From NCBI GenBank assembly GCA_005772895.1, contig SXIH01000040.1, positions 477 through 64,476 of the forward strand: a stretch of DNA of 64,000 bases. The letters are read 5' to 3'. Numbering within the stretch: the stretch's first letter is position 1; the number at the start of each line of letters is the position of its first letter. The position numbers and the translations under genes are program-made. The notes beneath the pieces were generated by a model, which did no database searches, was not told where the DNA came from, and saw only the letters and a list, made by a program, of their open reading frames with translations. Positions 12,888 through 36,238 of the stretch are shown here, one piece after another. Source of the stretch: Bacteroidota bacterium (GTDB lineage Bacteria; Bacteroidota; Bacteroidia; 2-12-FULL-35-15).

Positions 12888-12918
12888 TCCTGTTAATGAA
12901 AAAGCAAATTATCTAAGT

Positions 12919-13254: not shown

Positions 13255-13294
13255 ATATTACAATAATAGAATAAAAAACATTCGCATCTTAAAA

Positions 13295-14293: not shown

Positions 14294-14297
14294 TACA

Positions 14298-15574: not shown

Positions 15575-15580
15575 AATCAA

Positions 15581-17979: not shown

Positions 17980-18279
17980 ATGGCAGTAGAACTTATCACA
18001 AAAGATGACCTCAATTCATTCAAAATAGAGGTACTAAACGAAATCCGTCAAATCCTTAAACCAAAGGGCGGTGCACTATCACAAAAAGAATGGCTTAAAT
18101 CCTATGAAGTTCGTAAGCTTTTAGGAATCTCTCCCGGCAAACTTCAAAACATGCGTGTCAACGGCACCATTGCCTTCACGCAAATTGGTGGCTTGATGTT
18201 TTACAAATACGATGATATAGTAAAACTTATGGAAGACCATAAAACCAAGCATCCATTAATCGCCCGAAATGGAAAATGA
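17980..18279 (+). CDS. Helix-turn-helix (MerR/HTH_17) excisionase-like protein
   Basis: ELITKDDL..FK...WLKSYEVRKLLGIS.G.LQ.MR.NG.I.FTQIGG. Confidence 0.88.
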   Translation: MAVELITKDDLNSFKIEVLNEIRQILKPKGGALSQKEWLKSYEVRKLLGISPGKLQNMRVNGTIAFTQIGGLMFYKYDDIVKLMEDHKTKHPLIARNGK

Positions 18280-19103: not shown

Positions 19104-19695
19104 GCAACAATTAATTTGGTTAGAAAAAAAAGGTATGGAAGTGTACGGGAATCATTTTAAAATAGTTGAGGAAGATAAGTTTTTATTGTGTCGCATTATA
19201 TGCTATTTTCTGCAAGATGAAAAACCTTCCGAAAAATTGAACATTAATTTTCAAAAAGGTATTTTAATCACTGGCCCTGTAGGTAGTGGAAAAACATCAA
19301 TCATGCACCTGATGCGCTTTTTTCTTCCTGCTCAAAATCGCTACAACATTAAATCCTGCCGCGATGTAAGTTTTGATTTCATAAAAGATGGTTACGAAAC
19401 AATACACAAATACAGTCGCCACAGTTTTAATAATCACAATCCGGTTACTTGGTGCTTTGATGATCTTGGAACCGAAAACAACTTGAAATACTTCGGTAAC
19501 GAGTGTAATGTGATGGCAGAAGTTTTATTAAGCCGTTACGATTTATTTGTAAGTCGCAAACTCCTTACTCATCTCACAACAAATCTCTCAGCTTCCGAAA
19601 TTGAAGAGCAATACGGCAATCGCGTTCGCTCTCGCCTTAGGGAAATGTTTAATCTCATTGCATTCGATAAACAAACAAAAGACAAACGAAAATAA
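19033..19695 (+). CDS. P-loop ATPase, DnaC/IstB-like helicase loader
   Basis: Walker A GPVGSGKT, Walker B CFDDLGTE, TTNLS...YG.RVRSRL.EMFN. Confidence 0.8.
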   Translation: MAKQNEQQENSRQKLEKITTSHYEQQLIWLEKKGMEVYGNHFKIVEEDKFLLCRIICYFLQDEKPSEKLNINFQKGILITGPVGSGKTSIMHLMRFFLPAQNRYNIKSCRDVSFDFIKDGYETIHKYSRHSFNNHNPVTWCFDDLGTENNLKYFGNECNVMAEVLLSRYDLFVSRKLLTHLTTNLSASEIEEQYGNRVRSRLREMFNLIAFDKQTKDKRK

Positions 19696-19721
19696 TTATA
19701 AACCTATAAAAAACAGAAATC

Positions 19722-20510
19722 ATGTGTAAATCAAAAATTCAAGCATTCTTTAGAAAATTAAAAACGGTATTCGGTGGAAAAGGCCAAAGAAAAAATCTGG
19801 GACAAAATCCTCGAAACAATTATGAGCAATTAGAAAGAGAAAATAAATTAGTTCTTTCGTACTTAACAGTCCGAAAGATTATTGGAATATTGGGTTTACT
19901 TTTTCCATTAATTTTAGTTCTTGGTTCATTTATTTTAGGTCACTGCTGCAACATTCAAATTTCAATCAGCAATTATTATCACACCAACATGCGCGATGTC
20001 TTTGTTGGTTATGTCTGTACACTTTCAATTTTCATGCTCTCTTACAAAGGCTATGATTTAGCCGACCGTATTGTTTCAGCCCTTACCGGTATATTCGGTT
20101 TGGTGGTGGCATTAATGCCAACCAACCTCAAAACAGATCCTATCACCGGCTTAATCCCACAATGCAACATTTGGTGTAATGTTGAAAGGCACAACTGGAT
20201 AGGTATTGTGCACTTGGTCGCTGCAGGCTTATTCATCCTTGGCATGGCTTATTTTACACTTTTCCTTTTCACCAAAGGCGAAACTACCCCCACACCGCAA
20301 AAACTCATCAGGAACAAAATATACAAGATTTCCGGTTACATTATGCTTGCGTGCATGGGCATAATGATTGTCTTTTTCGCCTTACCCGACAGCCTAACGG
20401 CCGGTCTGCTCAAATTCAAACCCGTATTTTGGCTTGAAACCATCGCATTCGTAGCCTTCGGCTTCTCATGGTTGGTTAAAGGGGAGTTTTTGTTGAAAGA
20501 CAGCGTATAA
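19722..20510 (+). CDS. Multi-TM membrane protein (DUF998-like)
   Basis: SYLTVRKIIGILG...SISNYYHT.MRD.FVG...H.VAAGLF...WLE..AF.AFG.SWLVKG, about 6 TM. Confidence 0.6.
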   Translation: MCKSKIQAFFRKLKTVFGGKGQRKNLGQNPRNNYEQLERENKLVLSYLTVRKIIGILGLLFPLILVLGSFILGHCCNIQISISNYYHTNMRDVFVGYVCTLSIFMLSYKGYDLADRIVSALTGIFGLVVALMPTNLKTDPITGLIPQCNIWCNVERHNWIGIVHLVAAGLFILGMAYFTLFLFTKGETTPTPQKLIRNKIYKISGYIMLACMGIMIVFFALPDSLTAGLLKFKPVFWLETIAFVAFGFSWLVKGEFLLKDSV

Positions 20511-20652: not shown

Positions 20653-21300
20653 ATGATAAAGAAAAAAATCCCATATAAAAAAGCGATGCCTGCGAAAAAA
20701 GCAACCACAAAAAAGGTGGTGCCCGCAAAGAAGCTTAAAATTATGGTTTCATCCACTGTCTATGGTTCAGAAAGTGATTTAGAGCAGATTTACGGTTTAT
20801 TGAAAGGATATGGTTATGAAGTAATAATGTCAAAGGAAGGGACAGTTTATGTGCCAATTGGATCTTCACCTACCCAGGCCTGTTTAAAAGCAGTTGAAGA
20901 TTGTGATTTATTTTTAGGCATTATCTTTCCAAGATATGGATCAGGTATTACGCATAAAGAATTTCAAAAAGCCCTCGAATTAGATAAACCAAGATGGTTC
21001 ATAACTCATCACTTTGTTCCTTTTTCCCGTGAGATTCTAAAGCAATTTATGTACACTTCTACTAATAAAAGAATTAAAACATTTAAGTTGAATAGAAACG
21101 GTGTTATGGACAGTGAAAAAGTAATTGATATGTATAATGATGCTATACAAAATGATTTAGACCCTAAGAAAAGAAAATCAAATTGGGCGCAACCGTTTTT
21201 TAGAACAAGCGAGATAATGCCTTTTATTAACACTCAGTTTAATGATCTTGAAAAGCGCAGGGAAGAGTTGTCTGAATATAATAAAACAAAGAAAAAATGA
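20653..21300 (+). CDS. DUF4062-domain protein with Lys/Ala/Pro-rich N-terminal tail
   Basis: IMVSSTVY..E.D.EQI...L...GY, CL.AVEDCDLFLGII..RYGSGITHKEF..A. Confidence 0.8.
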   Translation: MIKKKIPYKKAMPAKKATTKKVVPAKKLKIMVSSTVYGSESDLEQIYGLLKGYGYEVIMSKEGTVYVPIGSSPTQACLKAVEDCDLFLGIIFPRYGSGITHKEFQKALELDKPRWFITHHFVPFSREILKQFMYTSTNKRIKTFKLNRNGVMDSEKVIDMYNDAIQNDLDPKKRKSNWAQPFFRTSEIMPFINTQFNDLEKRREELSEYNKTKKK

Positions 21301-22796
21301 AAACAGACCAATTGATAAAAAACCTTATTAAGCAGAAAGAAAGCGAACAGCTTGAATTTGCCGAATCCTTAAGTAAGGAGCATATTGCTAATACTGTTTG
21401 TGGTTTTTTAAATGGTAAAGGTGGTCAGATTTTAATTGGAGTGAAAGAAAACGGAACGATTACAGGAATATCAAATGCAACAAAATACAAGGAGGAATTA
21501 CATAAATATTTTTCAAGCACATTGCTTCCAGAAGCCCCTATAACAATTAGCATTGAAGATGTAGATAATAAAAACATTGCCAACATAGAAGTATGGGAAG
21601 GTGCCAAAAAACCGTACATTTCCAATGGAAGTATATATTATCGTAAAAAAGACAAAACAGTTCGTGCCAGTTCAAAAGAAATATCAGAATTAATACATAG
21701 CCGTCAGTTATCAGAAACACATTGGGAAAGACAAATTGTATTAGGAGTAGAATTAAAAGACCTTGATACTTCCGAGATAAAAAGCACAATAAAAAATTTA
21801 ACTGACTTTGGTAGTGCAAAGAAATTCTCAGGAGATGTATTGGATTTTTTAACTCACTATGGCTTATTTCAGAATGGATATTTCACTAACTCAGCGGTAG
21901 TGTTATTTGCAAAAGAACCTTCGAGATTCCTACCACAGGTAAGATTCAGAGTTTCAATTTTAAAAGATGAAAAAACGGGTAACAAGTTTATTAACGATAA
22001 ACTATTGGAAGGTAATTTATTTAAAAACTTCAGGGATATAGAACAGTATTTGCAGGCAAATTTAGAGCATCAGCGTGTGTTTAAAAGAGGCAAATGGCAA
22101 CGAACAGATGAATATATTTATCCTACCGAAGCTTTAAGAGAAGGAATAATAAACGCTTTGGTACATCGTAATTACGAAAATATTTCTGGAGGAGCCTCTC
22201 TTATTCTTTATAATGATAGATTAGAAATAACCAATACAGGAAAATTACCGGATAATATGACTGTAGCTGATCTAAAGGTTAGTCATATTTCTTCACCTCC
22301 TAATCCCGATATTGCACAGATATGTTTTTTAAAGGGTTATATTGAAAAGATAGGAAGAGGAACAATTAAAATAATAGAAGAGTTTAAAAAAGCTAAACTT
22401 AAAGAACCTGTATGGAAAACAAGTGGAGGAACTGTAAAACTTACATTCTATAATAATCTTAAACAAAATGATAAGGGAGTAACTGAGGGAGTAATTAGGG
22501 GAATAACTGAGGGAATAAGTAAAACTACAATGGCTAAAATTGAGGCTGTAGTTGAGGGAGTAACTGAGGGAGTAACTGAGGGAGTAAAAAGTAAGATAAA
22601 AGATACTGTACTTGCTATTTATAAACATGAAGGTATAAATACCAATGAAATAGCTGACGCTATTGGAGTACCTGTTAAGAGTTTAGAAAGACACATAAAG
22701 CTTTTAAAAGAGGCTAAAATAATTGAATTTAAAGGTGCTCCAAGAACAGGAGGATATCACATTGCTAAACGTATTATTAATAAAACAAAAAAATAA
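21297..22796 (+). CDS. AlbA_2 (Schlafen-like) + HATPase_c_4 (RecG-C-like) + wHTH protein
   Basis: ESEQLEF..., CGFLN.KGG.ILIGV, YP..ALREGIINALVHRNY, IEITNTG.L, PNPDIA.....GYIEKIGRG, C-terminal HTH ending G....GGY. Confidence 0.88.
   Translation: MKTDQLIKNLIKQKESEQLEFAESLSKEHIANTVCGFLNGKGGQILIGVKENGTITGISNATKYKEELHKYFSSTLLPEAPITISIEDVDNKNIANIEVWEGAKKPYISNGSIYYRKKDKTVRASSKEISELIHSRQLSETHWERQIVLGVELKDLDTSEIKSTIKNLTDFGSAKKFSGDVLDFLTHYGLFQNGYFTNSAVVLFAKEPSRFLPQVRFRVSILKDEKTGNKFINDKLLEGNLFKNFRDIEQYLQANLEHQRVFKRGKWQRTDEYIYPTEALREGIINALVHRNYENISGGASLILYNDRLEITNTGKLPDNMTVADLKVSHISSPPNPDIAQICFLKGYIEKIGRGTIKIIEEFKKAKLKEPVWKTSGGTVKLTFYNNLKQNDKGVTEGVIRGITEGISKTTMAKIEAVVEGVTEGVTEGVKSKIKDTVLAIYKHEGINTNEIADAIGVPVKSLERHIKLLKEAKIIEFKGAPRTGGYHIAKRIINKTKK
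22475..22586 (+). repeat. 12-bp coding tandem repeats (GVTE units)
   Basis: GAGGGAGTAACT units in two blocks encoding GVTEGVIRGITEGI and EGVTEGVTEGV. Confidence 0.85.
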
Positions 22797-22797
22797 C

Positions 22798-23136
22798 ATG
22801 CCGGTAAAAGTAACAACAGTTGACATTTTAAAGAAGTACTTTGAAGGAGTTACAAAAAGAGCTAATCACCATGCTCCGCAAGCAGACAGTGTAATCTACG
22901 CTTTACTTGGTATAATAGTTCTCAAAAAAGATGATGGAACAGACATCGAAGTTAGAGGTAGCAGTGATGATGCAACAGGCAATATTCTTTGGGTAACAAT
23001 CAATGGAACAAAGTACGCCTTTAGGTACGAACATTCGGATAATACAATAGAAATCAGAAGAAATTCGTATAGTGGACCGGTATTATTAAAAGTTGATAAT
23101 ACCACTACAGTAAATAATATTTTAGCCTTATTTTAA
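22798..23136 (+). CDS. VCH_CASS14-like (integron cassette protein family) small protein
   Basis: Y..GV..RA.HHA, NILWVTING..YAF.Y.H....IEIR......DN.T matches my recollection of Vibrio Cass14. Start moved from 22723; 1-bp gap to the upstream stop. Confidence 0.7.
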   Translation: MPVKVTTVDILKKYFEGVTKRANHHAPQADSVIYALLGIIVLKKDDGTDIEVRGSSDDATGNILWVTINGTKYAFRYEHSDNTIEIRRNSYSGPVLLKVDNTTTVNNILALF

Positions 23137-23955: not shown

Positions 23956-24327
23956 ATGGAAGGAAACTCTTGTATCAGGGTATATGCTGACCCAACACAG
24001 ATTAAGAACTGTAAGGAATTATTGCGGACAAACTCTGAAGCCTTTGAGAATCTTGCAAAAGTTCTAGAGTTGGCAGGTAATGAAGTCCGGTTAAAAATTC
24101 TTTTTCTTCTCGAAGAGGAAAATGAATTATGTCCCTGTGATTTGAGTGATATTCTTGGTATGAGTATCCCTGCAGTTTCACAACATTTGCGAAAACTGAA
24201 AGACGGTAATATTCTTATCACAAGGCGTGAGGCCCAAACCATATATTATTCGCTGAAAAAAGAACACCTAAAAATTCTTAAACCATTTTTCAAATTCATT
24301 CGTCAGTCGAATGTTATTACAGAATAG
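23956..24327 (+). CDS. ArsR/SmtB metalloregulator
   Basis: SCIRV...C, LAGNEVRLKIL.LL....LCPCDLSDIL..S.PAVSQHLRKLKD. Confidence 0.93.
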   Translation: MEGNSCIRVYADPTQIKNCKELLRTNSEAFENLAKVLELAGNEVRLKILFLLEEENELCPCDLSDILGMSIPAVSQHLRKLKDGNILITRREAQTIYYSLKKEHLKILKPFFKFIRQSNVITE

Positions 24328-24329
24328 CC

Positions 24330-24926
24330 ATGAAACAAGGTAAACTAATAGGAGCCGGAATTCTATCTGCTATTGCAGCGTCCCTTTGTTGTATCACTCC
24401 GGTATTAGCATTAATAGCAGGTACAAGTGGCGCAGCTTCGGCATTCTCTTGGATTGAGCCATACAGACCATACCTGATAGGCTTAACCGCTGTGGTACTT
24501 GGTTTTGCTTGGTATCAAAAACTAAAACCTCAGCAAAAAACTGATTGTGATTGCGCAGTAGATGAAAAACCAAAATTCCTGCAGAGTAAAAAATTTCTGT
24601 TCATAGTTACAGTATTTGCAGTCTTGATGATTGCGTTCCCATATTACGCAAAATTATTCTATCCAAGCCCTGAGAAGGAAGTAATCATCGTTGATAAGTC
24701 AAATATCCGCAAAGTTGAATTTACTATTTCCGGCATGACCTGTGCCAGTTGTGCGGAACACGTATCGCATGAGGTGAATAAACTAACCGGTATCATCAGC
24801 GTGAATGCTTCTTATGAACATGGCAATGCTATAGTAGAGTTTGAAGATACAAAAACAACTATTACCGAAATCGAATCCGCAATAAATTCTACTGGTTATA
24901 TCGCAGCAGAAAAAAAGGAAAAATAA
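24330..24926 (+). CDS. merTP: MerT-MerP fusion heavy-metal transporter
   Basis: ASLCCITP TM motif, CDC loop, C-terminal HMA domain GMTCASC. Confidence 0.88.
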   Translation: MKQGKLIGAGILSAIAASLCCITPVLALIAGTSGAASAFSWIEPYRPYLIGLTAVVLGFAWYQKLKPQQKTDCDCAVDEKPKFLQSKKFLFIVTVFAVLMIAFPYYAKLFYPSPEKEVIIVDKSNIRKVEFTISGMTCASCAEHVSHEVNKLTGIISVNASYEHGNAIVEFEDTKTTITEIESAINSTGYIAAEKKEK

Positions 24927-25152: not shown

Positions 25153-25827
25153 TCACAAGGCGTTTACATCCCGAATTAAAATCTGTCTTCGGTCATAAAA
25201 AATAACACCGTGTTTCTCAAGCTCACTAAAAACATTAGTAACGGTCTGCCTTGAAGTGGCCGTGAGTTTAGCAATATCCTCATGAGTAAGATTTAGTTTA
25301 ACCGAAATTTCATCACCAATAATTTTTCCATGCTCTTCTGAAATTTCTTTAATAAATCCTCTTATTCTTTCTTCCGAGGATTTAAAAATCAACGAGGTTA
25401 GTCTGTTTTGTATTCTTTTTAACTTCAAACCAATGAATTTTGTAATTCGCAAATTGAATTTCGGATTCATTGCCAACATTTGTTCCAAATCGTTTATATC
25501 AACACCGCAAATAACAGCTTCCTCGGTTACTTCTGCTATTTCATTCCTGTTTCCTTGATCCATTAGCGCTAATTCACCAAATATTTCTCCTGGGCCAAGT
25601 ATGTTTATAATGACTTCTTTACCGTCTTGCGAATAGCGGGAAATTTTCACCTTACCAGCTTTAAGAAAATAAATACGGTTGGAAACATCTTCTGAAAAAT
25701 AAATAACCTGTCCCTTACTGGAATTTTTCATCGAGGTCATCTTGCCAAGCTCTTCCATCTCTTTCATTGTCAATGACTCAAGTAGGTTAAAGTTTTCAAA
25801 ATACCATAGTTTCGATTTTTGTTCCAT
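25153..25827 (-). CDS. Crp/Fnr-family transcriptional regulator
   Basis: cNMP-binding domain (G.VKI...GEIFGE), HTH LTHEDIAKLTATSRQTVT. Start moved from 25872. Confidence 0.92.
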   Translation of the reverse strand: MEQKSKLWYFENFNLLESLTMKEMEELGKMTSMKNSSKGQVIYFSEDVSNRIYFLKAGKVKISRYSQDGKEVIINILGPGEIFGELALMDQGNRNEIAEVTEEAVICGVDINDLEQMLAMNPKFNLRITKFIGLKLKRIQNRLTSLIFKSSEERIRGFIKEISEEHGKIIGDEISVKLNLTHEDIAKLTATSRQTVTNVFSELEKHGVIFYDRRQILIRDVNAL

Positions 25828-25940
25828 GAGTGATGATTCGTTGGTTGGTAAAAATACGAAAATGCCAGTCATTCATTATGTCGGCACCACGACAATATTT
25901 TTTCAAATTCCTACAAATATTTGCATTAATCTGAAAACAA

Positions 25941-26543
25941 ATGAGACGCTTTTTTTTAACCATAATTTTCTTCTTTGCATTTGCTCATTTTTCGCTCAGC
26001 CAAGCGGATAGTTTACTTGGTCACTTTTCATTGCAAAAGTTACAAAGCACGGTGATATTAAATTGGACACTTCGCTCTGGCTCCACCTGTAATGGTATAC
26101 AAATATTTCGTTCCGAAGACAGCATGCAATTTGTACAAATTGGCGATATACAAGGCGTATGTGGCAGCTCAGGCACAAGTGTTGATTATTTATTTGAGGA
26201 TACCGCCCCGCTAAATGATAAAACAAATTATTATAAACTTCAACTTGGAACAAATGGCTTTTCCAAGGTTCTTGCTATTAAGATTATTAAAATACCTCCA
26301 AACGGGTCAACGGTAAGACCCAATCCAGTAGCTGAATTTATGGATGTTTATTTCTCAAACCCAAATTCGTTAAGCATGTCCTTTGTGCTTTATGATTTTT
26401 TTGGCCAGGAAGTTTTTCGGAAAGACAATTTAAATGGTGAACATCTGCATTTTGAACGCTCTGGAACAATTTCAGGTATTTACACTTACATGATTGTTTA
26501 CGAAGATGAAATTCATTCCATCGGTAAAATTATACTTCTTTGA
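25941..26543 (+). CDS. T9SS cargo-like protein, paralog of 14969-15574
   Basis: Signal peptide, LNW...SGSTCNG...GVCG...YYKLQLG, VRPNP...GIYTY. Confidence 0.7.
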   Translation: MRRFFLTIIFFFAFAHFSLSQADSLLGHFSLQKLQSTVILNWTLRSGSTCNGIQIFRSEDSMQFVQIGDIQGVCGSSGTSVDYLFEDTAPLNDKTNYYKLQLGTNGFSKVLAIKIIKIPPNGSTVRPNPVAEFMDVYFSNPNSLSMSFVLYDFFGQEVFRKDNLNGEHLHFERSGTISGIYTYMIVYEDEIHSIGKIILL

Positions 26544-26632: not shown

Positions 26633-27082
26633 ATGAAACCAAATTTAAAAACCACCCTCATTGGGGGATTAATAGCCACAACAGCAATGACCATGATTAT
26701 GCTCATGGCTCCTATGATGGGTATGCCGGAAATGCCTATTGGTAAAATGTTGGCAGATTTCATGCATCTTCCTGTTTTTTTTGGATGGACGATACATTTT
26801 ATGATTGGATTAATATTCGCATTCATTTATTCTATATTACCTGGTAAAATTTTACCAAATCAAAATTTAATCAGAGGAATTTTGTTCAGCACTATTCCTT
26901 TTTTAATGGCTCAATTGATGATAATGCCTATGATGGGTATGGGCATCTTTACTTCAGGCGCGGGAGAAATGCAAATGAAACTAGTATTTGGTAGCCTTAT
27001 CGGACATCTGATTTACGGAATTGCACTCGGGCTAACAATTAAAAAATTACGACCTGAATATAGTCATGAATGTAAATGTTGA
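26633..27082 (+). CDS. Met-rich membrane protein (DUF6789/DUF2938-like)
   Basis: GGLIATTAMT..M..APMMGMPEM...H...G......MPMMGMG...H.IYG, 4 TM. Confidence 0.65.
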   Translation: MKPNLKTTLIGGLIATTAMTMIMLMAPMMGMPEMPIGKMLADFMHLPVFFGWTIHFMIGLIFAFIYSILPGKILPNQNLIRGILFSTIPFLMAQLMIMPMMGMGIFTSGAGEMQMKLVFGSLIGHLIYGIALGLTIKKLRPEYSHECKC

Positions 27083-27691: not shown

Positions 27692-27789
27692 TTTTGATTT
27701 GGCTTTCTTTTTTATTTTTTTCGGTTTTTGTTTTTTCTTTTAAAAATATATGGGGGGCGCAGCGCAGCATAATTTTTAATGCTCAAGCT

Positions 27790-28212
27790 ATGCTCAAATC
27801 AAAAATCAAAACACACAAAATCGGAAACAGCTACAACCAACCTCACTTTTTTATTCTGAATAAAGGAAGAAATTCAGGTAAACCAAGTCCTGAATGGTAT
27901 AGTAATTCATTTGTTTTCCTTGCAGATTCAGAGGAAGAAAGATGGCACTTTTATTATTTATGTCAAGCCTTATGGCAGGGAAAATATTTTCATCAATTAT
28001 TAATTGGCTCTGTAATTGAGTTTATACGCATTGATGAATTCGCAGTGGCATTGCATCATGCAAATATCACAATCTCTCAAAATAAGGCAGATTTTACAGA
28101 ATTACTTGGGTATTTCAAACAGTTAGATGAACATCAAACTAACCTCACAAAACAAATTAAATTGATTCACCAGGTCAGGCAATCCATGATCTATAAAATG
28201 CTACATAAATAG
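27790..28212 (+). CDS. DUF6943-like protein
   Basis: IKTH...Y..PHFFILNKG.NSGKP.....NSFV...LW....F...L.GSVI.FIRI motif seen in flavobacterial mobile elements. Start moved from 27694. Confidence 0.65.
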   Translation: MLKSKIKTHKIGNSYNQPHFFILNKGRNSGKPSPEWYSNSFVFLADSEEERWHFYYLCQALWQGKYFHQLLIGSVIEFIRIDEFAVALHHANITISQNKADFTELLGYFKQLDEHQTNLTKQIKLIHQVRQSMIYKMLHK

Positions 28213-28654
28213 TGGCAGTTTTTGCCTAATTAAATTTTATATGCAAAGGTAGCAGGTGGGCTGACCCACTTGCCAACACTAATAAAAACAAAAGACTACG
28301 GCATAAACACAGACAAACGCACAGGCTTTCATTTATTTCGTTTCCTTTTGTTTTTATTAATCCACCTACTGAATAAAGCATATAAAATTTAATAATTATG
28401 CTAAAACATCCACGCTTCAAAAAAAATGTCAATCATTCAGGTGTTTGTTCTTTTACACCACAGCTTTTACCTAACAATCTGCAGGTTTCAGCCTATGCTT
28501 TTCAAAGGTATTTGCGCAAATCGTCTTTCACTCATTCTCCAACCCCAAGCATCAAGGCTTATCAGCTTCCGTGCGGTTGCTTTGTTTGGGTTCATTCATC
28601 TGGTGTTCGTCAGCTTTCAGCATTGCCCTTTTAAGGTTTTGCTGAAATAAAAAA

Positions 28655-28675
28655 GGTCGCCCGGTATGGACGACC
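28655..28675 (-). terminator. Intrinsic terminator for the minus-strand module
   Basis: GGTCGCCC...GGACGACC hairpin preceded by an A tract on the + strand. Confidence 0.6.
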
Positions 28676-28703
28676 CTCAATTTACATAACAGATTCTGTA
28701 GGT

Positions 28704-28919
28704 TTATTTCCTCTTACCATTTCGCTTAATGTAGCCCCAAAGCTTTTTTACAGCTTCTTTTAACACAACAGACACAATGAAACTAACCACTGCGCCCAAC
28801 GCTGCAAGGACTACTGTTTTGGTGATGTCTTGCGAATCTATATTCGCTACTACGGTAAAAGCCGTTCCTCCAACAGTGCCTAAAACAGTTCCGCTTTCTA
28901 TGTGTTGATTTGGTGACAT
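28704..28919 (-). CDS. Small 2-TM protein, holin-like
   Basis: GTVGGTAFTVV...DITKTVVLAALGAVVSFIVSVVLK with basic C-terminus. Confidence 0.6.
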   Translation of the reverse strand: MSPNQHIESGTVLGTVGGTAFTVVANIDSQDITKTVVLAALGAVVSFIVSVVLKEAVKKLWGYIKRNGKRK

Positions 28920-28928
28920 TGTTTACTC

Positions 28929-29207
28929 TTAGGAAGTTTGATCAGTTTTACCTGAATCTGCTTTAGTCAGTTTGGAATGAGATTCCAAAGCGATTTTTGG
29001 ACAACCACAACTACCATCATTTTCTGTTGGTTCGATTCGGATGATAACTTTCTCCTCACTGTTATACCCAACGCGGCCGGCATCAGCTTTTGTAAGCTTA
29101 CTGCCTGCTGCTATCGCATCAATCAGTTCGCCTTTGTTCATGTCGAAAGTTTTTACTTTCACATCAAACTCAATGGTTGTGATGTTTTGTTTTTCGTTTT
29201 CTTGCAT
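28929..29207 (-). CDS. Small protein containing an HU N-terminal helix motif
   Basis: MNKGELIDAIAAGSKLTKADAGR versus HU-beta [30 protein letters not shown] is repeated at the C-terminus. Confidence 0.55.
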   Translation of the reverse strand: MQENEKQNITTIEFDVKVKTFDMNKGELIDAIAAGSKLTKADAGRVGYNSEEKVIIRIEPTENDGSCGCPKIALESHSKLTKADSGKTDQTS

Positions 29208-29238
29208 CGCAATTAAATTTTAAAGATTAAACAATGTT

Positions 29239-29463
29239 TTATTTAATAACAGCATCAGTTACTTTCAACTTTCGTTCTGTTTGAATATGAATATTCAAAT
29301 CAAAAGTTTCTTCTGTTTCGGTTTGCTCTTCGCAAACCTCAACTGCAACCATTGTTGTTAATTTTCCCAATTCAGGTCCCGCTTTGAAGCGCGGTACTTT
29401 TTTTGCTTTTACTCGGATGAATAAATCATTTTTAACCTCGTTTTTTTCACATGTATTTTCCAT
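29239..29463 (-). CDS. Small protein containing an HU C-terminal motif
   Basis: IRVKAKKVPRFKAGPEL versus HU I.I.AKKVP.FKAG..L. Start moved from 29511. Confidence 0.55.
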   Translation of the reverse strand: MENTCEKNEVKNDLFIRVKAKKVPRFKAGPELGKLTTMVAVEVCEEQTETEETFDLNIHIQTERKLKVTDAVIK

Positions 29464-29483: not shown

Positions 29484-29750
29484 TTAATACTCTTTTTTTT
29501 TCGGCTCGCACTCTTCGTCTTTCACTGCCACTTGGCTAACCGCAGTCGCTACGCTTCCTGCTACAATTAGGTAACCGCCAGCGGTTACGATCGCAGCGGG
29601 TAGGGCTATTGGTGCTGCCACCAATACGCCACCCACAGCTGCTAATGTTAAGCCAACTAATCGCAGTTTTTTAAAGAACGGAGGAGTGTCAGCTTTGCAA
29701 CGCTCTATGAGTGTTTTTACAAAGCCTTTTTTGTTTCCGATTTCGCCCAT
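29484..29750 (-). CDS. Small 2-TM protein, holin-like
   Basis: ER.KA.TP.FFK.LR.VGL.L.AV.G....AP..LPA.....GGY....G.V..AVSQ. Confidence 0.6.
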   Translation of the reverse strand: MGEIGNKKGFVKTLIERCKADTPPFFKKLRLVGLTLAAVGGVLVAAPIALPAAIVTAGGYLIVAGSVATAVSQVAVKDEECEPKKKEY

Positions 29751-29766: not shown

Positions 29767-30516
29767 TTATGCCACCTCAACAATACTTAAAGTATTGTGA
29801 GCGCCATTTTTAAGTGAATACTGAACTGCATTTACTTCCTGGAAGAATTCAATTTGTAACAAATACAAATCAGTTCCCGCGCCTGCCGGTACACCTGCAG
29901 GCGTTAGCACCACGTTTGTTGCCACTCCATCTATTGGAAGGTTTACTACGTTGCTTGCCTGTAAATCGTACAAGCCAGTCGCAAAATCCAATTTCAGCCA
30001 AGATCCCTTTAAAGTAATGTGTGTAGCACCCGATGGAAAATTAATGTGATTGATTGGCTCCAAACCGTTGATGGTGATTACACCTGTTCCGGTATTTACT
30101 GCATACGGTTGAAACAAGATGCTTCCCAAAATTGCTTTTTTATTGAAGTTGAAATTCTTCAACAACGCTTTTGCAGCTGGTAAAGCAATTGCAACGCCAA
30201 CATTTCTCAAACCTCTTACGCTTGTCGCGTCAAGGTTTTTGATGTCGGTCATTACTTTGGTTAAACGAGAAACAACTCTGTTGTCAGAAGCAGTTTGCAA
30301 CATTGCAAACAATGCTGTTCTCAGGGTTTTACCTGAGCTTGCAGATGAGCCAAACTCCGCACCGTTCTCTCTTGTTCTCACAAAAGCGGGATCGTTTTGG
30401 ATGCGTTCCGCATCCACGCCCCCTTTTTCACGGGCTAAGTGGCCATCTTGCGTTTTGTAAAAGGAAATATCTCCGATTTTCCCTTTTAGCTTGATGATTC
30501 CTTTTTGCCTTGCCAT
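29767..30516 (-). CDS. Conserved hypothetical protein (MARQKG family) of flavobacterial mobile elements
   Basis: Basic N-terminus MARQKGIIKLKGKIGDISFYKT...F.RTRENG.EFG, beta-rich C-terminal half ending EFFQEVN...Y.LKNG. Confidence 0.75.
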   Translation of the reverse strand: MARQKGIIKLKGKIGDISFYKTQDGHLAREKGGVDAERIQNDPAFVRTRENGAEFGSSASSGKTLRTALFAMLQTASDNRVVSRLTKVMTDIKNLDATSVRGLRNVGVAIALPAAKALLKNFNFNKKAILGSILFQPYAVNTGTGVITINGLEPINHINFPSGATHITLKGSWLKLDFATGLYDLQASNVVNLPIDGVATNVVLTPAGVPAGAGTDLYLLQIEFFQEVNAVQYSLKNGAHNTLSIVEVA

Positions 30517-30757: not shown

Positions 30758-30958
30758 ATGAGTAAAACAGTTCGGGCATGTATTTACCCCAAAGATGTGA
30801 TGCGGATAACAGGAAAAAGTGAAAGGTATGCCCGGAAGTTTTTGAATGAGATCAAAAAGCATTTTGAAAAACCCAGCCACCAGTTCGTCACCGTTAGAGA
30901 GTTCTCATCTTATACCGGAATTGATATTTCCACAATAGAAACTTACTTAATTGACTAA
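30758..30958 (+). CDS. Small HTH DNA-binding protein (excisionase-like)
   Basis: CIYPKDVMRITGKSERYARK.L..IK...K..HQFVT..EF..YTGI. Divergent from the MARQKG gene. Confidence 0.7.
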   Translation: MSKTVRACIYPKDVMRITGKSERYARKFLNEIKKHFEKPSHQFVTVREFSSYTGIDISTIETYLID

Positions 30959-31238: not shown

Positions 31239-31312
31239 GACCCCATAGCTCAGCTGGATAGAGCAACGGTTTTCTAAACCGTAGGCCTTTGGTTCGAATC
31301 CAAATGGGGTCA
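31239..31312 (+). tRNA. tRNA-Arg (anticodon TCT)
   Basis: GACCCCA/TGGGGTC acceptor stem, GCTCAGCTGGATAGAGC D arm, ACGGT-TT-TCT-AA-ACCGT anticodon arm, GGTTCGAATCC T arm. Confidence 0.97.
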
Positions 31313-31317
31313 CCTTT

Positions 31318-31346
31318 AAAGTCAAGAATTTCTCTTGGCTTTTTTT
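31318..31346 (+). terminator. Terminator after tRNA-Arg
   Basis: AAAGTCAAGA-ATTTC-TCTTGGCTTT followed by T run. Confidence 0.65.
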
Positions 31347-31453
31347 GTTTCTCTAACCTTATACAACAAGTCAATTTTCCCGTATTTTTCATGCAATTAT
31401 CATATCCGAATGCTATATTTGTAATACATTTTAATATCATAAAATTGCCAGAT

Positions 31454-33331
31454 ATGTTTACAAATAATAGGATAGTTTTCTTATTGATTAATTCTGCACT
31501 AGTTCTGCTTACTGCTTGTGGTGGAAATGAAACGGCTACAGTTGTTAACGAAAACAGCAAAAACATCACTGCTGATCAAACAAAATTTATCAAAATTGAA
31601 GATGCTACCACTTTCCTGCCTTCATGGTCGAAAGAAAATGTATTGGTTTACAATGTTGTAGGAGAACCCGATGAGATGCATCCTACAAACGGGATTTTGG
31701 TGTATCGTGGCGAAATTATGGGTTATACACAGGTTTATTTGATCGGAACCGATTTTGAAACACTTACTTTGCGCCCGATTGCTGTGAAAGCAATGCCTAC
31801 CGTTTCTGACAATGGAAAAGAGTATACTTATGAAGTGCGCAATGATATTAAGTTTGATGATGGAAGCACATTATCTGTGGAAGATATTATATACACTTAT
31901 AAGGCAAATAAATGTCCGCTGACAAATAACCCAAGCGCTAAATCCTATCTGGAAAATTTAGTAGATATTGTTGCAGATAAAAACAATCCGAATGTATTTA
32001 CTATCATCATGAAAGAAAAGTACATTCAAAACATTAGTTTTTTGGCTGAGTTTCCAATTATGCAAAGAACTTTTTTTGATCCGAAAAATGTTTTATCAAA
32101 ATATACTTTTACTCAATTCAACGATAAAAAATTTAAAGCCGATGAGCATAAAGATTTAACCGAATGGGCAACGGAGTTCAATAGTGCTAAGTATAGCAGA
32201 GATCCAAAGTATACAGTTGGAGCAGGAGCTTATCGTTTAGAGAAATGGGATGCCGGACAAAGCATAACTTTAGTTCGCAAAGAAAATCACTGGACAAAAG
32301 GAACAGATAAAAAATATTACACTTCTTATCCGGATAAAATTGTTTTCAAACTAAACAAAGAGCCTAACTCTCAGATGTTAGAATTTAAAGCACAAACGTT
32401 GGATGCTTCTACATCTCTTTCTAATAAAACCTTAACGGAGCTTCAGGCTGATACAACTTTTAATGCCAATTATAATTCACGCTTTACTGATACGTATAAT
32501 TATGGTTTCATTGCTATGAATATGAAACCCGATGGAATCAAGAACAAAAAATTGTTTGTCGATAAGAATGTCAGAAGAGCAATGGCTTTACTTGTTCCGC
32601 TTGACGATATGAACAGAATAAATAATAAAGGAAGAAATAAGCGTACTGTCGGACCGGTTTCAATTTTAAAACCCGAATACAATAAAGATTTAAAATTAAT
32701 TCCTTTTGATATTGAAGCTGCAAAAAAATTATTGGATGAAGCAGGATGGAAAGATACGGATGGCGATAATATCCGTGATAAAATGATTGATGGCGAAAAA
32801 GTAAAAATGGAATTCAATTTGAATTATTTTACTACGTCTATCGAATGGAAAGATGTTGCAAAAATGGTTTCTGAACAAATGTATAAAGCAGGAGTGGTGG
32901 CAATCCTTAATCCGCTCGATCCTTCTGTTTTATTTGATCAGGCTGCCAATCACAATTTTGATATGTTAATTGCTTTTTGGGCAGGAAATGTATTTCCTGA
33001 AGACTACACACAAATTTGGCATACGTCTGCTTGGGCTTCAAAAGGCTCAAACTTTGCAGGTTTTGGTAATGCAGAATCAGATGCTTTGATTGATTCAATA
33101 AAATATACACTTGATCCTGCTAAATCAATTCCTATGTTAAAACGTTTCCAAGAAATTGTATACGATGAGCAGCCATATATTTTTATGTTTGCCGGAGTAA
33201 GAAGAAATATTATTCACAAACGTTTTGGTAATCAGGAAATGTATTTTGAACGACCTGGTGTGTGGTTAAGTAATCTTCGCTTACTGCCAAGTTCAGGTAC
33301 TGCTATGAAATTATCTGCCAATCCAAATTAG
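31454..33331 (+). CDS. oppA: Peptide ABC transporter substrate-binding lipoprotein (OppA/DppA-like)
   Basis: Lipobox LLTA-C after moving start to 31454. KFDDG..LS.EDI.YT, GAGAYRL..W, NVRRAMA, YDEQPYIF. Confidence 0.9.
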   Translation: MFTNNRIVFLLINSALVLLTACGGNETATVVNENSKNITADQTKFIKIEDATTFLPSWSKENVLVYNVVGEPDEMHPTNGILVYRGEIMGYTQVYLIGTDFETLTLRPIAVKAMPTVSDNGKEYTYEVRNDIKFDDGSTLSVEDIIYTYKANKCPLTNNPSAKSYLENLVDIVADKNNPNVFTIIMKEKYIQNISFLAEFPIMQRTFFDPKNVLSKYTFTQFNDKKFKADEHKDLTEWATEFNSAKYSRDPKYTVGAGAYRLEKWDAGQSITLVRKENHWTKGTDKKYYTSYPDKIVFKLNKEPNSQMLEFKAQTLDASTSLSNKTLTELQADTTFNANYNSRFTDTYNYGFIAMNMKPDGIKNKKLFVDKNVRRAMALLVPLDDMNRINNKGRNKRTVGPVSILKPEYNKDLKLIPFDIEAAKKLLDEAGWKDTDGDNIRDKMIDGEKVKMEFNLNYFTTSIEWKDVAKMVSEQMYKAGVVAILNPLDPSVLFDQAANHNFDMLIAFWAGNVFPEDYTQIWHTSAWASKGSNFAGFGNAESDALIDSIKYTLDPAKSIPMLKRFQEIVYDEQPYIFMFAGVRRNIIHKRFGNQEMYFERPGVWLSNLRLLPSSGTAMKLSANPN

Positions 33332-33392: not shown

Positions 33393-34871
33393 ATGCTTCA
33401 ATACATTCTAAAACGTATCCTGATTTTTATTCCCACTCTTATTGCGATTACACTTTTAGGTTTTATTATTAGTGTAAATGCTCCCGGGAATCCTGAAGAG
33501 AGAATGGTTACTTCTGCACAAGGGAACGGTGAAACAGGAGCACAATCTTTAGGGCAAATTCAAGAAAAAAAACGCTGGAGAACGAAATTAGGATTAGATC
33601 TTCCGGTTTTTTATTTCTCATTAACTTCTCTTTCTCGTCCGGATACACTTTATAAAATTGATGACAGAAATGAAAAAGAAGCACTCGATCGTTTAATTTC
33701 TAAGTATGGTAATTGGGAAAATATACAAGCATATCATATTTCTTTGAGTAAGTATTATGCTGCACAACTTTTATTTGTTGCTGATACAAATCAGTTAAAG
33801 CAATATGATAAAAATGCTGTGCTTGAAACGATCAATCAATTAAAGTTTGAAGTGTCGGCATTAAAAGCTTCGTATGAGCCTGCTATTATTAATGCTAAGA
33901 TGGATAAAGTAAGTGTTTTGCTTTCTTCTTATCCATTTTTATCTTCCTTTAAATCAGATTTCGAAAAAGTAAAGATTGATTATTTAGCAATAGAAAAAAA
34001 TGCTACTGCCTGGAAAAATTATATTCCCCGAATTGCATTTTATGGTTTTAAAAATCAATACCATCGTTGGTTGTTCGGTGATGGAGGAAAATTTTCAAAA
34101 GGTTTATTATTGCATGGCGATTTCGGAACATCTTATGTTACCCGGCAACCAATATCGGATGTGATTTATTCTAAAATCGGGTGGTCGCTTTTCTTTTCTA
34201 TGTTATCGGTTGTTTTGGCTTATGTTATAAGTATTCCAATAGGAGTAAGAGCAGCAGCAAAAAGAGGTTCCCGTTTTGACAGATACTCTTCTGTTATTTT
34301 ATTTTTGTTGTATTCTATGCCATCGTTTTGGCTGGCAACATTGCTAATTATGACATTTGCAAATACAGATGCATTATCGTGGCTTCCTGCATCGGGTGTG
34401 AAACCTGCTTTGGGATATCCTGACGGAGCTTCACTTTGGGAGATGATCAAAATTTCATTTCCATATATAATTCTTCCAGCTATTTGTTATACCTATAGTT
34501 CGTTTGCCTTTTTATCACGCACCATGCGAGTATCTATGTTGGATGTAGTGAATCAGGATTATATCAGAACTGCAAGAGCTAAAGGTTTACCCGAAAGTAA
34601 AGTTATTTGGAAGCACGGATTAAGAAATGCTTTATTGCCTATCATTACTGTTTTTGCAAATGTTTTTCCAGCGGCAATTGGTGGATCTGTAATCATCGAA
34701 AGCATTTTTACTATTCCAGGAATGGGTTCTGAAACAATTTATGCAATTCAGAACAATAATTATCCAATGATAATTGCTGTGCTTACAATTACTGGATTTT
34801 TAACGCTATTAGGTTATTTGATTTCCGACATATTATATGCTATTGTTGATCCCCGAATTTCTTATAAATGA
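33393..34871 (+). CDS. oppB: Peptide ABC transporter permease (OppB-like)
   Basis: MLQYILKRIL..IPTL, GDFGTS, QDYIRTARAKGL EAA motif, RNALLP, DPRI. Confidence 0.93.
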   Translation: MLQYILKRILIFIPTLIAITLLGFIISVNAPGNPEERMVTSAQGNGETGAQSLGQIQEKKRWRTKLGLDLPVFYFSLTSLSRPDTLYKIDDRNEKEALDRLISKYGNWENIQAYHISLSKYYAAQLLFVADTNQLKQYDKNAVLETINQLKFEVSALKASYEPAIINAKMDKVSVLLSSYPFLSSFKSDFEKVKIDYLAIEKNATAWKNYIPRIAFYGFKNQYHRWLFGDGGKFSKGLLLHGDFGTSYVTRQPISDVIYSKIGWSLFFSMLSVVLAYVISIPIGVRAAAKRGSRFDRYSSVILFLLYSMPSFWLATLLIMTFANTDALSWLPASGVKPALGYPDGASLWEMIKISFPYIILPAICYTYSSFAFLSRTMRVSMLDVVNQDYIRTARAKGLPESKVIWKHGLRNALLPIITVFANVFPAAIGGSVIIESIFTIPGMGSETIYAIQNNNYPMIIAVLTITGFLTLLGYLISDILYAIVDPRISYK

Positions 34872-36238
34872 TGGAAGAACAAAAAGAAAATATCTTAATT
34901 TCGGACTCCTGTCACTTCGAGCGGAGCCGAGAAGTTAATTTAAAAAAAATTGCATGGAAACAGTTTAAAAAAAATAAACCAGCATATTTTTCTTTTAAAA
35001 TTTTAATTGTACTTATTGTGCTCGCATTGATTTCGCCAATAATTGCAACCGATCAACCTTTGTACTGCAAATATAAAGGTGTGAACATGTTTCCTGCATT
35101 CTCGTTTTCAAATTCATGTGAAATAAAAAATGAAGACGGTTCAGTAGAAATTCTCCAATATGATATTGCTGAATGGAAATATTTAGATGCTACAACTATT
35201 ATTTTTGCACCTATTGCTTATGCACCAAACAAAACCGATTACGATAATGCTGATTATGTTGCACCAAATGGAAAGCAAGTATTCAAAGATAAAAGCGGAA
35301 ACCTTGTTGAAATGCCAACTAAATTCCGCCATTGGTTAGGAACCGGAAAGGCAGGAGAGGACGTGCTTTCTGGATTAATTAACGGAACGCGTGTTTCATT
35401 ATTAATAGGAATTTTGTCTATGACTATTGCTTCCTTCTTAGGAATTTTTTTAGGAGCAATAGCAGGATATTTTGGAGATAAAAAATTGCAGACTACCAGA
35501 GGTTCCTTCTGGACTATGGTTATAGGATTAGTATTTGCATACTATTATGGTTTTTCTGTCCGTTCATACAATATTGCAGATGCATTTGCAACTTCCGGTT
35601 TCGCAGTATTAACTCAGTTGATTATTAGTTTGATTATTTTTTCATTCGTCTCTTTTTTATTTTATCTCTTAGGAAAACAAATTGGAAAAATTTCATTTTT
35701 AAGCACACGAGTTTTTATTCCTGTTGATTCAATTGTTTCCCGCACAATCGAAATTTTAATTTCAATGCCTTTGCTGATTTTAATTATTTCTATTTCTGCA
35801 ATTGCAAAAGAAAAATCAATGATTAATCTAATGGTGATTATTGGTTTGACTACCTGGACAGGTATAGCTAGATTAACAAGAGCAGAGTTTTTGAGAATTA
35901 CCAATTTAGAATACATTCAAGCAGCAAAGTCCATGGGATTTAAAGAGTTTCATATAATGTTCAAACATGCTTTACCCAACGCACTGGCACCTGCTATGGT
36001 GGCTATTGCATTTGGTGTAGCTTCTGCTATTTTAATTGAGTCTTCATTATCGTTTTTAGGAGTAGGTGTTCCGCCATCTACAGTTACATGGGGTTCTTTA
36101 TTAAATGCTGGTCGGGAACAATTTAGTGCCTGGTGGTTGGTGGTCTTCCCGGGTTTAGCTATATTCTTAACCGTTACTATTTACAACCTATTAGGCGAAG
36201 GATTAAGAGATGCGCTTGATCCCAAATTGAAGAAGTAA
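34868..36238 (+). CDS. oppC: Peptide ABC transporter permease (OppC-like)
   Basis: AWKQFKKNK, HWLGT...G.DVLS, R.EFLR...EYI.AA...G, ESSLSFLG.G, GEGLRDALDP. Confidence 0.93.
   Translation: MMEEQKENILISDSCHFERSREVNLKKIAWKQFKKNKPAYFSFKILIVLIVLALISPIIATDQPLYCKYKGVNMFPAFSFSNSCEIKNEDGSVEILQYDIAEWKYLDATTIIFAPIAYAPNKTDYDNADYVAPNGKQVFKDKSGNLVEMPTKFRHWLGTGKAGEDVLSGLINGTRVSLLIGILSMTIASFLGIFLGAIAGYFGDKKLQTTRGSFWTMVIGLVFAYYYGFSVRSYNIADAFATSGFAVLTQLIISLIIFSFVSFLFYLLGKQIGKISFLSTRVFIPVDSIVSRTIEILISMPLLILIISISAIAKEKSMINLMVIIGLTTWTGIARLTRAEFLRITNLEYIQAAKSMGFKEFHIMFKHALPNALAPAMVAIAFGVASAILIESSLSFLGVGVPPSTVTWGSLLNAGREQFSAWWLVVFPGLAIFLTVTIYNLLGEGLRDALDPKLKK
34911..34932 (-). repeat. REP-like palindrome inside the oppC N-terminal coding region
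   Basis: GTCACTTCGAGCGGAGCCGAGA. Its reverse complement differs by 2 nt from the intergenic copy at 41341-41362. Confidence 0.7.

Follow-up and report, generated by a model that had tools for sequence, protein, structure and literature searches.

Two adjacent small open reading frames (ORFs) on the minus strand of the 64,000-nucleotide stretch of Bacteroidota bacterium DNA analysed here (contig SXIH01000040.1, positions 477 to 64,476; henceforth referred to as the window) encode intact, conserved proteins of a mobile island and are not a broken HU gene. The two, henceforth referred to as ORF-A and ORF-B, had been read in a first-pass annotation as the two parts of a single HU gene, separated and placed in reversed order, the products of which might rebuild a permuted HU. 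Sequence comparison replaces that picture with one of carriers of a short HU peptide, referred to below as the tag, which are encoded in a conserved island operon and whose function is proposed only. The earlier interpretation held in so far as the motifs are HU-derived or HU-mimicking modules in real genes under selection, and failed as regards a split or permuted HU. It had overlooked the repeated short tag, the five-gene operon (with two predicted membrane proteins and a protein named p249) and the occurrence of the tag in other mobile elements. The pattern is unusual and is widespread in uncultured Bacteroidota. Feature coordinates are collected in Table 1.

HU-like peptides in ORF-A and ORF-B

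The peptides described in the first-pass annotation are present on the minus strand, IRVKAKKVPRFKAGPEL in ORF-A and MNKGELIDAIAAGSKLTKADAGR, together with a second copy of SKLTKADSGK, in ORF-B. The ORF-B segment is a copy of HU residues 1–23 (helix 1, the turn and the start of helix 2), and was identical at all 23 positions to the HU proteins of L043, L045 and L046; the C-terminal tag corresponds to HU 14–23, with 10 of 10 amino acids identical. Family peptide patterns were scanned across 185,579 species genomes, which also returned ordinary HU genes. Genuine HU genes of ~ 90 amino acids (aa) in related Bacteroidota metagenome-assembled genomes encode exactly MNKGELIDAIAAGSKLTKADAGR at the N-terminus and a C-terminus ending in IKIAAKKVVKFKAGAEL.

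Local alignment of ORF-B to Bacteroidota HU proteins gave z scores of 15–17, and none of 3000 shuffles scored as high. The match of ORF-B residues 23–46 to positions 1–24 of the Pfam profile PF00216 remained below threshold (15.4 bits, with the cut-off at 22.4; E 0.022), as did the match to the NCBIfam HU-beta model, which was confined to the same residues (E 0.001). A profile of 42 ORF-B homologues recovered E. coli HU-beta in the PDB (E 2.4e-4). The 17-residue motif of ORF-A resembles HU 68–85 (the C-terminal strand and the start of helix 3) and shares 11 of 17 residues with IKIAAKKVVKFKAGAEL (z 7.4–8.2; 0 of 3000 shuffles), and an ORF-A-like gene at locus L016 contains a clearer HU-type string, KKFKAGSELADQV. 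No match of ORF-A to the Pfam HU model was obtained, and searching the PDB with the ORF-A family profile found neither HU nor any other protein. The likeness of both motifs to HU exceeds chance, as judged from the shuffles, and the ORF-A motif is weaker evidence than the N-terminal motif of ORF-B.

The core of HU, consisting of the rest of helix 2, the GFG[ST]F sheet and the R-N-P beta-ribbon arms, is carried by the genuine HU proteins of related genomes and is absent from both ORF translations, as had been pointed out. The motifs are instead embedded in unrelated sequence, the flanks of which show alternating beta-strand patterns. An AlphaFold2 model of ORF-B, built with a 42-sequence alignment, contained strands only, with one moderately confident beta hairpin, at a mean predicted local distance difference test (pLDDT) score of 54.6; no HU-like helix pair or HU fold was seen in this model, the low confidence of which limits the test. 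ORF-A and ORF-B are probably largely unstructured proteins with a beta-strand scaffold.

Conservation and selection

The homologues of ORF-B number 164 when clustered at 90%, and its family forms 136 clusters at 50% identity among 1.84 billion representatives; most are 85–96 aa long. ORF-A has 18 homologues of 73–79 aa, all of which start with MENT. Because all of these begin at the corresponding ATG, the ATG at 29463 is the true start of ORF-A, and the longer GTG form, extending to 29511 and unsupported by homologues, was dropped. The ratio of nonsynonymous to synonymous substitution rates (dN/dS, Nei-Gojobori) was 0.07–0.29 for ORF-B and 0.11–0.52 for ORF-A, with a proportion of synonymous differences (pS) of about 0.6. 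Both ORFs are thus intact, of fixed length among their homologues and under purifying selection (dN/dS about 0.1–0.5), which is the outcome of the conservation check that the first-pass annotation had suggested. An identical ORF-B is present on four contigs and the ORF-A/ORF-B pair recurs in dozens of loci, which excludes an assembly artefact.

Pseudogene debris of an island HU gene, an assembly chimera or chance similarity had also been considered, and mobile elements do often carry HU paralogues, while the tail of ORF-A in the window is degenerate. This explanation is refuted, and retains practically no probability, as more than 100 sequence clusters have intact reading frames of unvarying length, dN/dS values lie well below 1, an identical gene occurs on four independent contigs, the operon is syntenic and none of the 3000 shuffles scored as high. 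Homologues, selection and recurring loci were found where the first-pass annotation had allowed for shuffled remains.

The identity with HU extends to the peptide and not to the DNA. The 20 codons for GELIDAIAAGSKLTKADAGR in the window show 62–75% DNA identity to HU genes that encode the same or nearly the same peptide, and module and HU copies had a mean nucleotide identity of 0.73 (0.68–0.75 within genomes holding both the operon and an HU gene). Such low nucleotide identity excludes recent copying, gene conversion and chimeric assembly; with synonymous sites saturated, the host HU gene was rejected as a recent DNA source of the module, whether by copying or by gene conversion. The same peptide at ~ 72% nucleotide identity indicates that identity with HU is maintained at the protein level. 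Mean column identity in the ORF-B family is 51%, whereas the tag columns are invariant or nearly so. These comparisons indicate that selection holds the peptide equal to HU while the remainder of the carrier diverges.

The tag and its carriers

The consensus tag across loci is [G/H]-[S/A]-K-L-T-K-A-D-[A/S]-G-[R/K], 10–12 residues long and equivalent to HU 13–23 at the turn between helix 1 and helix 2. Within it K-L-T-K-A-D is invariant and G nearly invariant; internal copies usually end in ADAGR and C-terminal copies in ADSG[K/R]. Most ORF-A homologues end in SRAGSKLTKADSGKA, the same peptide as that found at the end of ORF-B and within its HU-like segment. Profile-profile alignment with hhalign aligned the two families over the KLTKAD tag only, the ORF-A tail pairing with the ORF-B tag. 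Two intact, conserved ORFs that share only a tag do not represent one HU gene in two reversed pieces.

The operon reads p249 - tm88 - ORF-A - ORF-B - tm71 on the minus strand, with gaps of 9–31 bp, and the slot between tm88 and tm71 is variable, holding one to three carriers and one to five tags per operon. Carriers of the A type (76 aa) have one tag, those of the B type (87–96 aa) have two tags and also occur in a doubled form of 150–164 aa, and a 112-aa type unrelated to A and B has three. The ORF-A slot is often empty, or holds the 112-aa three-tag protein or a second ORF-B-like copy. The variability of this slot indicates that the conserved unit is the tag and not the pairing of A with B. 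As far as the compared sequences indicate, the tag is a short host-identical peptide kept at the protein level in unrelated mobile-element carriers.

These observations bear on the proposal that ORF-A and ORF-B together form a permuted HU-like protein, or act as dominant-negative HU/IHF partners that modulate intasome formation. In HU, the dimer interface includes helix 1 and the beginning of helix 2, some relatives remain similar to HU up to about residue 33 (ALDATIESI), and the element is integrative, HU/IHF-type host factors being known to assist CTnDOT integration. The proposal is nevertheless very improbable, since the dimerisation core is missing (most of helix 2, the beta sheet and the arms), the AlphaFold2 prediction for ORF-B has no HU fold, and isolated 10-residue C-terminal tags cannot dimerise with HU. 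Moreover, the A + B pairing is not conserved, ORF-A being absent or replaced in many operons and its HU C-terminal motif having drifted.

Occurrence of the tag in other mobile elements

An exhaustive profile search also returned larger tag-bearing proteins. Three of these, of ~ 235–242 aa, have insertions of HU 1–23 or of the bare tag at two places, an N-terminal loop and a site near the C-terminus, and each lies on a 4.6–6.7 kb contig with a rolling-circle Rep gene (PF23343, phrog_3419). An untagged paralogue of ~ 226 aa is encoded immediately upstream of each. Both paralogues have basic N-termini and only the second bears the HU-N-terminus or KLTKAD inserts. Two independent assemblies proved to be exact rotations of one 4,912-bp circle, and these small Rep elements may be an undescribed plasmid or single-stranded DNA virus group of Bacteroidota. 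The circle was assembled in at least 12 samples; the Rep elements are found in L094 and L095, and also in L096 and L097. Homology between p249 and the ~ 230-aa Rep-replicon proteins was considered and rejected, only a similar-looking N-terminus remaining.

A second group, referred to as the GGKGQ family, comprises proteins of 100–140 aa with two or three HU-N-terminus repeats (M-x-K-x-ELIDAIA-x-x-SKLTKADAGR) that end in KLKVVFGGKGQ. In the two loci with upstream sequence read, L040 and L080, the family member immediately follows an unannotated, unrelated helical protein of ~ 254 aa; homology of p249 to this protein was likewise rejected. In some operon carriers (L019, L034 and L035) the peptide KLKNVFGGKAQ (KLK-x-VFGGK-x-Q) replaces one HU-like unit, which links the operon carriers to the GGKGQ family. 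The presence of the tag in Rep replicons and in this family makes it a portable module of several kinds of Bacteroidota mobile element.

Conserved operon encoding the carriers

Synteny was assessed by tblastn of seven window proteins against 85 related loci. A layout with a divergent helix-turn-helix gene (HTH66), the operon p249 - tm88 - carriers - tm71 and a convergent DUF6943 gene was present in about 40 of the 85, and every B-type carrier found sits in such an operon. Searches of all operon proteins against Pfam, NCBIfam, PHROGs and PADLOC returned only the sub-threshold HU N-terminal match, DUF6943 and weak HTH matches. The latter connect HTH66, which is syntenic in many loci and on plasmids, to the Cox-like excisionase phrog_575 and to PADLOC mad1, and PADLOC gave no match for p249, tm88, ORF-A, ORF-B, tm71 or DUF6943. 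The DUF6943 gene probably starts at an ATG near 27790, because its homologues are about 140 aa long; a literature search on DUF6943 found nothing. A ribosomally synthesized and post-translationally modified peptide precursor was considered as an identity for the carriers and rejected, as no enzyme domain occurs in the operon or its flanks in the window and the related loci examined.

The first gene encodes p249, a basic protein with an isoelectric point (pI) of about 9.7 and 5106 homologues, the top 120 of which share 73–94% identity and are all annotated as hypothetical. Its AlphaFold2 model (pLDDT 76, predicted TM-score 0.71) shows a basic, disordered N-terminus, one helical domain and a beta sandwich of Ig-like type. 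No Pfam match was found for p249, no PDB sequence match was found with the family profile, and Foldseek comparison of the model with the PDB and BFVD gave generic Ig-like noise only, with all E values above 0.01. No relatives of p249 or ORF-B were found in sequenced phages by tblastn or in IMG/VR by pattern scans, and ORF-B was absent from PLSDB plasmids.

Distant copies of p249 (32–42% identity) are present on seven Fulvitalea axinellae plasmids and one Marivirga plasmid. The plasmid copies examined adjoin a divergent HTH66-like gene and are without tag carriers. The Fulvitalea plasmids (pFA3, pFA7, pFA9 and four others; L087–L089) belong to one strain, and each holds a distant p249 homologue. 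In the three plasmids examined a small divergent gene lies upstream of p249 (HTH66-like by sequence on pFA9), with a tyrosine recombinase alongside once and the replication initiator nearby twice. This gene context suggests that p249 may serve a replicon-level function.

Both tm88 and tm71 have hydropathy windows above 1.6 and are, like holins, small predicted transmembrane (TM) proteins, the charged tail being that of tm71. The latter has a glycine-zipper-like segment, a basic C-terminus (KKLWGYIKRNGKRK) and a holin-like shape. Operon proteins gave no match to holin families in Pfam or PHROGs, and no peptidoglycan hydrolase was found by Pfam in the window operon. On the Marivirga sp. plasmid p1 (L086, 5352–7024) a decayed version of the operon reads p249 - DUF5675 - tm88-like - tm71-like, without tag carriers, the split DUF5675 gene preceding the tm88-like gene. 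A 2026 preprint proposes DUF5675 as a C82-like peptidase or lysin. This neighbour is the sole hint that tm88 and tm71 may have a holin-like role.

A strong hairpin followed by a T run lies between p249 and tm88 in L001 (5317–5390; gcctgtccgcc aaa ggcgggcaaggc tttt), as in some other loci. In L001-type loci it could be an attenuator giving an excess of p249 over the downstream gene products. The p249–tm88 gap of the window is only 16 bp.

Proposed function of the carriers

We tentatively propose that the carriers may imitate an exposed surface of HU in a multivalent manner, either competing for an HU-recognising factor or recruiting it. The tag would be a short linear motif imitating the solvent-exposed elbow between helix 1 and helix 2 of HU, and the co-transcribed carriers would present several copies of it, either competing with HU for the factor that reads the elbow or serving as adaptors to that factor. 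The most economical candidate reader would be p249, which is favoured because it is encoded in the same operon, is highly constrained and has a charge complementary to that of the carriers (pI about 9.7 versus 5.2–5.8); a host enzyme acting on HU would be the alternative. The output would serve the island, for example through control of HU-dependent steps such as recombination or replication, or of the two membrane proteins.

Besides being the main bacterial chromosome-packaging protein, HU assists many mobile elements as a cofactor in their recombination, replication and transposition. For an integrative element it makes a plausible target: CTnDOT integration has a classical HU/IHF-type protein among its host factors, and HU paralogues of Bacteroidetes have been implicated in mobile-element conflicts (PMC5499826).

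Several observations weigh against HU mimicry by the carriers. ORF-A of the window has lost the canonical tag, and the HU-like motif of the ORF-A family is poorly conserved, being retained by part of the family only and having drifted to KATKSPKDQTDLEL in other members. Tag variants did not track the exact HU variant beyond the invariant core in the four genomes with both, and shared ancestry combined with comparable local structural constraints, in place of selection for mimicry, could account for part of the identity with HU. The distribution of p249 is much wider than that of the carriers (5106 homologues, including plasmid copies) and it occurs without them, so it does not need tags. The roles of tm88 and tm71 are left unexplained by the model.

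The position of the tags, at extreme C-termini and in probably disordered protein, would also suit a degron or processing site, in which the tag copies a host-protease site on HU and the carriers are labile antitoxin-like regulators or competitive substrates. We regard this as unlikely. HU-beta is an established specific substrate of E. coli Lon (PMC6098112, PMC3391209). The output of such a system, which is similarly unlikely, would be control of p249 and/or the holin-like pair, for example as an island addiction or abortive-infection switch; an operon with two small predicted 2-TM proteins and a basic tail, a distant plasmid version with the 2-TM genes after a DUF5675 peptidase-like putative lysin, and a neighbourhood that is a defence-cargo hotspot would all be in keeping with it. 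The preferred Lon site in HU-beta is reportedly K18–G22, exactly where the tag lies. An A20D change reportedly slowed Lon cleavage, and the D of that change, which is the residue present in the tag, counts against a degron. In being hydrophilic the tag also differs from typical Lon or ClpX degrons, such a Lon site has been established for E. coli HU-beta only, and no PADLOC or toxin-antitoxin family was matched.

A targeting peptide is more doubtful still. Here the C-terminal, multi-copy tag would be a cargo-loading signal to a p249 assembly or an export signal out through tm88/tm71, in a manner resembling type 10 secretion, and HU itself, with the same low probability, might be carried too. 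The extreme conservation of p249, which is like that of a structural protein, its Ig-like domain, the holin-like gene pair with a lysin-like gene in the Marivirga variant, and the location of Rep-replicon tags in one of two ~ 230-aa paralogues with basic N-terminal arms that could be structural would fit such a role, but p249 has no match to a shell, capsid or encapsulin fold (HK97 and Linocin_M18 encapsulin shells included, with no Pfam match and no significant Foldseek match in the PDB or BFVD), p249 and ORF-B are absent from IMG/VR and sequenced phages, and the window operon is without a lysin. Nor is any reason given why such a signal should equal HU 1–23.

If mimicry of the HU elbow is nonetheless followed further, the portable HU-derived motif would amount to a bacterial form of 'histone mimicry', in which islands presenting it multivalently and Rep replicons carrying it in their ~ 240-aa proteins tap or fight over one HU-elbow reader of the host, and the operon could be an exclusion or decoy device against rival elements dependent on that reader. 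We consider this extension somewhat unlikely.

Relation to known systems

The carriers resemble HU/IHF (DNABII, PF00216) only in the peptides described above. They differ in lacking the HU fold, the greater part of helix 2, the GFG[ST]F sheet and R-N-P arms, with the Pfam match below threshold, and in being acidic where HU is basic, with motifs that are repeated and embedded in unrelated beta-strand sequence. HU-HIG and HU-CCDC81 are HU derivatives of Bacteroidetes, proposed to act in mobile-element conflicts and to have shifted from DNA to protein binding (Burroughs et al. 2017, PMC5499826). As lineage-specific HU derivatives in Bacteroidota they are like the carriers, but they have the full HU fold with shortened arms or extra domains and their own Pfam models, whereas the carriers hold peptide-length pieces; no Pfam match of ORF-A or ORF-B to these models (PF18291, PF18174/5) was found at E up to 1.

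The nearest analogue in logic is the imitation of host chromatin proteins by short viral motifs, as in influenza NS1, the C-terminus of which mimics the histone H3 tail. The likeness lies in a peptide of a host chromatin protein placed at the C-terminus or in a disordered region of a genetic-parasite protein, in otherwise unrelated carriers; the differences are that the host here is bacterial, that HU is mimicked and that there are multiple copies. Phage SPO1 Gp46 is a DNA-mimicking HU inhibitor. Neisseria DMP12 is another (PMC3643605). Both are small acidic proteins, as the carriers are, and target the HU system, but they imitate DNA and bind the arms of HU, whereas the carriers imitate HU itself. 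Holin/lysis cassettes and type 10 secretion share with the operon two small predicted 2-TM proteins, a charged tail and an arrangement in one operon, with DUF5675 in the distant version; the window operon differs in having no lysin or holin-family match and was not found in phages.

To our knowledge, HU has so far been seen as a target of DNA mimics or as replaced by element-encoded paralogues. Peptide-length HU copies, identical at the protein level and moved between unrelated island and replicon proteins, would be a bacterial counterpart of viral histone mimicry. They would imply an undescribed reader of the HU N-terminal elbow, for which the tag would be a ready affinity handle. The operon, with more than 5000 p249 homologues, defines a widespread uncharacterised backbone unit that marks a defence-cargo hotspot in Bacteroidota islands, and as a marker it would be useful for island annotation and for the discovery of new defence systems.

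The island and its surroundings

As judged from gene content and synteny, the operon lies at the tRNA-proximal edge of an RteC-type integrative island with variable defence cargo. A tRNA gene (Glu, Lys or Cys) with the same orientation was located 370–450 bp upstream of p249 in 11 of the 31 other loci examined, which makes the operon the outermost, inward-reading operon of tRNA-associated islands. Beyond DUF6943 the cargo varies and is often defence-like, including Piwi/pAgo and Fic, a DUF4365-dynamin-like GTPase, a caspase-like peptidase with GAP1-N1/EAD1, and HamA with an OLD-TOPRIM ATPase and a UvrD helicase. At L091, three conserved unknown genes and an HTH_17 gene come after the cargo, matching the arrangement at 17980–20510 of the window. 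Because the RteC/HTH_17 backbone is arranged as in L091, the window element spans roughly 17.0–31.0 kb. L091, which has the same backbone as the window, carries Gabija-like and HamA genes instead, and the same backbone with different cargo identifies a cargo hotspot. A comparison of the tRNA-Arg region with the remainder of the window revealed no direct attachment-site (att) repeats that would define the ends of the island. The tyrosine integrase at the start of the window is 16–30 kb from the island, and no link between the two was established. No relevant account of an RteC-type defence island emerged from a literature search.

Table 1 Coordinates of features in the window and, where named, in other loci.
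Feature	Position	Strand	Description
ORF-A	29239–29463	minus	74 aa, start MENTC; small, mildly acidic protein
ORF-A HU-like motif IRVKAKKVPRFKAGPEL	29368–29418	minus	ORF-A residues 16–32
ORF-A degenerate tag KLKVTDAV	29248–29271	minus	ORF-A tail; alignment slot where most homologues have SKLTKADSGK
ORF-B	28929–29207	minus	92 aa; small acidic two-tag protein
ORF-B HU-like segment MNKGELIDAIAAGSKLTKADAGR	29073–29141	minus	ORF-B residues 23–45
ORF-B internal tag	29073–29102	minus	Inside the HU 1–23 copy
ORF-B C-terminal tag SKLTKADSGK	28947–28976	minus	ORF-B residues 78–87
p249	29767–30516	minus	First operon gene; hyper-conserved, 249 aa
tm88	29484–29750	minus	88 aa, hydrophobic, glycine-rich; two TM helices read from sequence
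tm71	28704–28919	minus	71 aa, hydrophobic; two TM helices read from sequence; last operon gene
Terminator-like hairpin	28652–28678	minus	11-bp stem, then T run; closes operon
HTH66	30758–30958	plus	Small excisionase- or regulator-like HTH protein, divergent from p249
DUF6943 gene	27694–28212	plus	Convergent with operon; Pfam PF22105, E 1e-40; inner border of variable cargo
tRNA-Arg(TCT)	31239–31314	plus	Outer island edge
RteC	17024–17872		Window backbone; precedes HTH_17
HTH_17	17980–18279		Window backbone
Three conserved unknown or AAA-like genes	18276–20510		Window backbone
DUF4062 + Schlafen/AlbA_2-HATPase_c_4	20653–22796		Cargo; possible defence pair
VCH_CASS14-like integron cassette protein	22723–23136		Cargo
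ArsR + MerT-HMA fusion	23956–24926		Cargo
Crp	25153–25872		Cargo
Type IX secretion system (T9SS)-tailed protein	25941–26543		Cargo
DUF6789	26633–27082		Cargo
Tyrosine integrase	31–1215		Arm-DNA-bind_5 + SAM-like domains; window start, probably N-terminally cut
p249, Marivirga p1	5352–5732, 5931–6197		Frameshifted
DUF5675, Marivirga p1	6206–6343, 6356–6613		Split
tm88-like and tm71-like, Marivirga p1			Intact
GGKGQ repeat family, L040	4506–5637		
GGKGQ repeat family, L080	5166–6252		
GGKGQ repeat family, L038, L041, L057, L079			

On the outer side of the island, the tRNA-Arg(TCT) gene overlaps the mechanically called start of a 680-aa SBP_bac_5 ORF (31289–33331), which places the true start of this oligopeptide-binding gene downstream of the tRNA; Opp-type permease genes follow (33393–36238). 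Just upstream of RteC, at 11568–16699, lie five genes with T9SS C-terminal sorting domains, encoding a glycosyl hydrolase 42-like protein, a deiodinase-like protein, two proteins without a recognised catalytic domain and an esterase. Elsewhere in the window, a minus-strand ORF of 1283 aa (43798–47649) has a G+C content of 0.40–0.41, compared to about 0.34 for the window.

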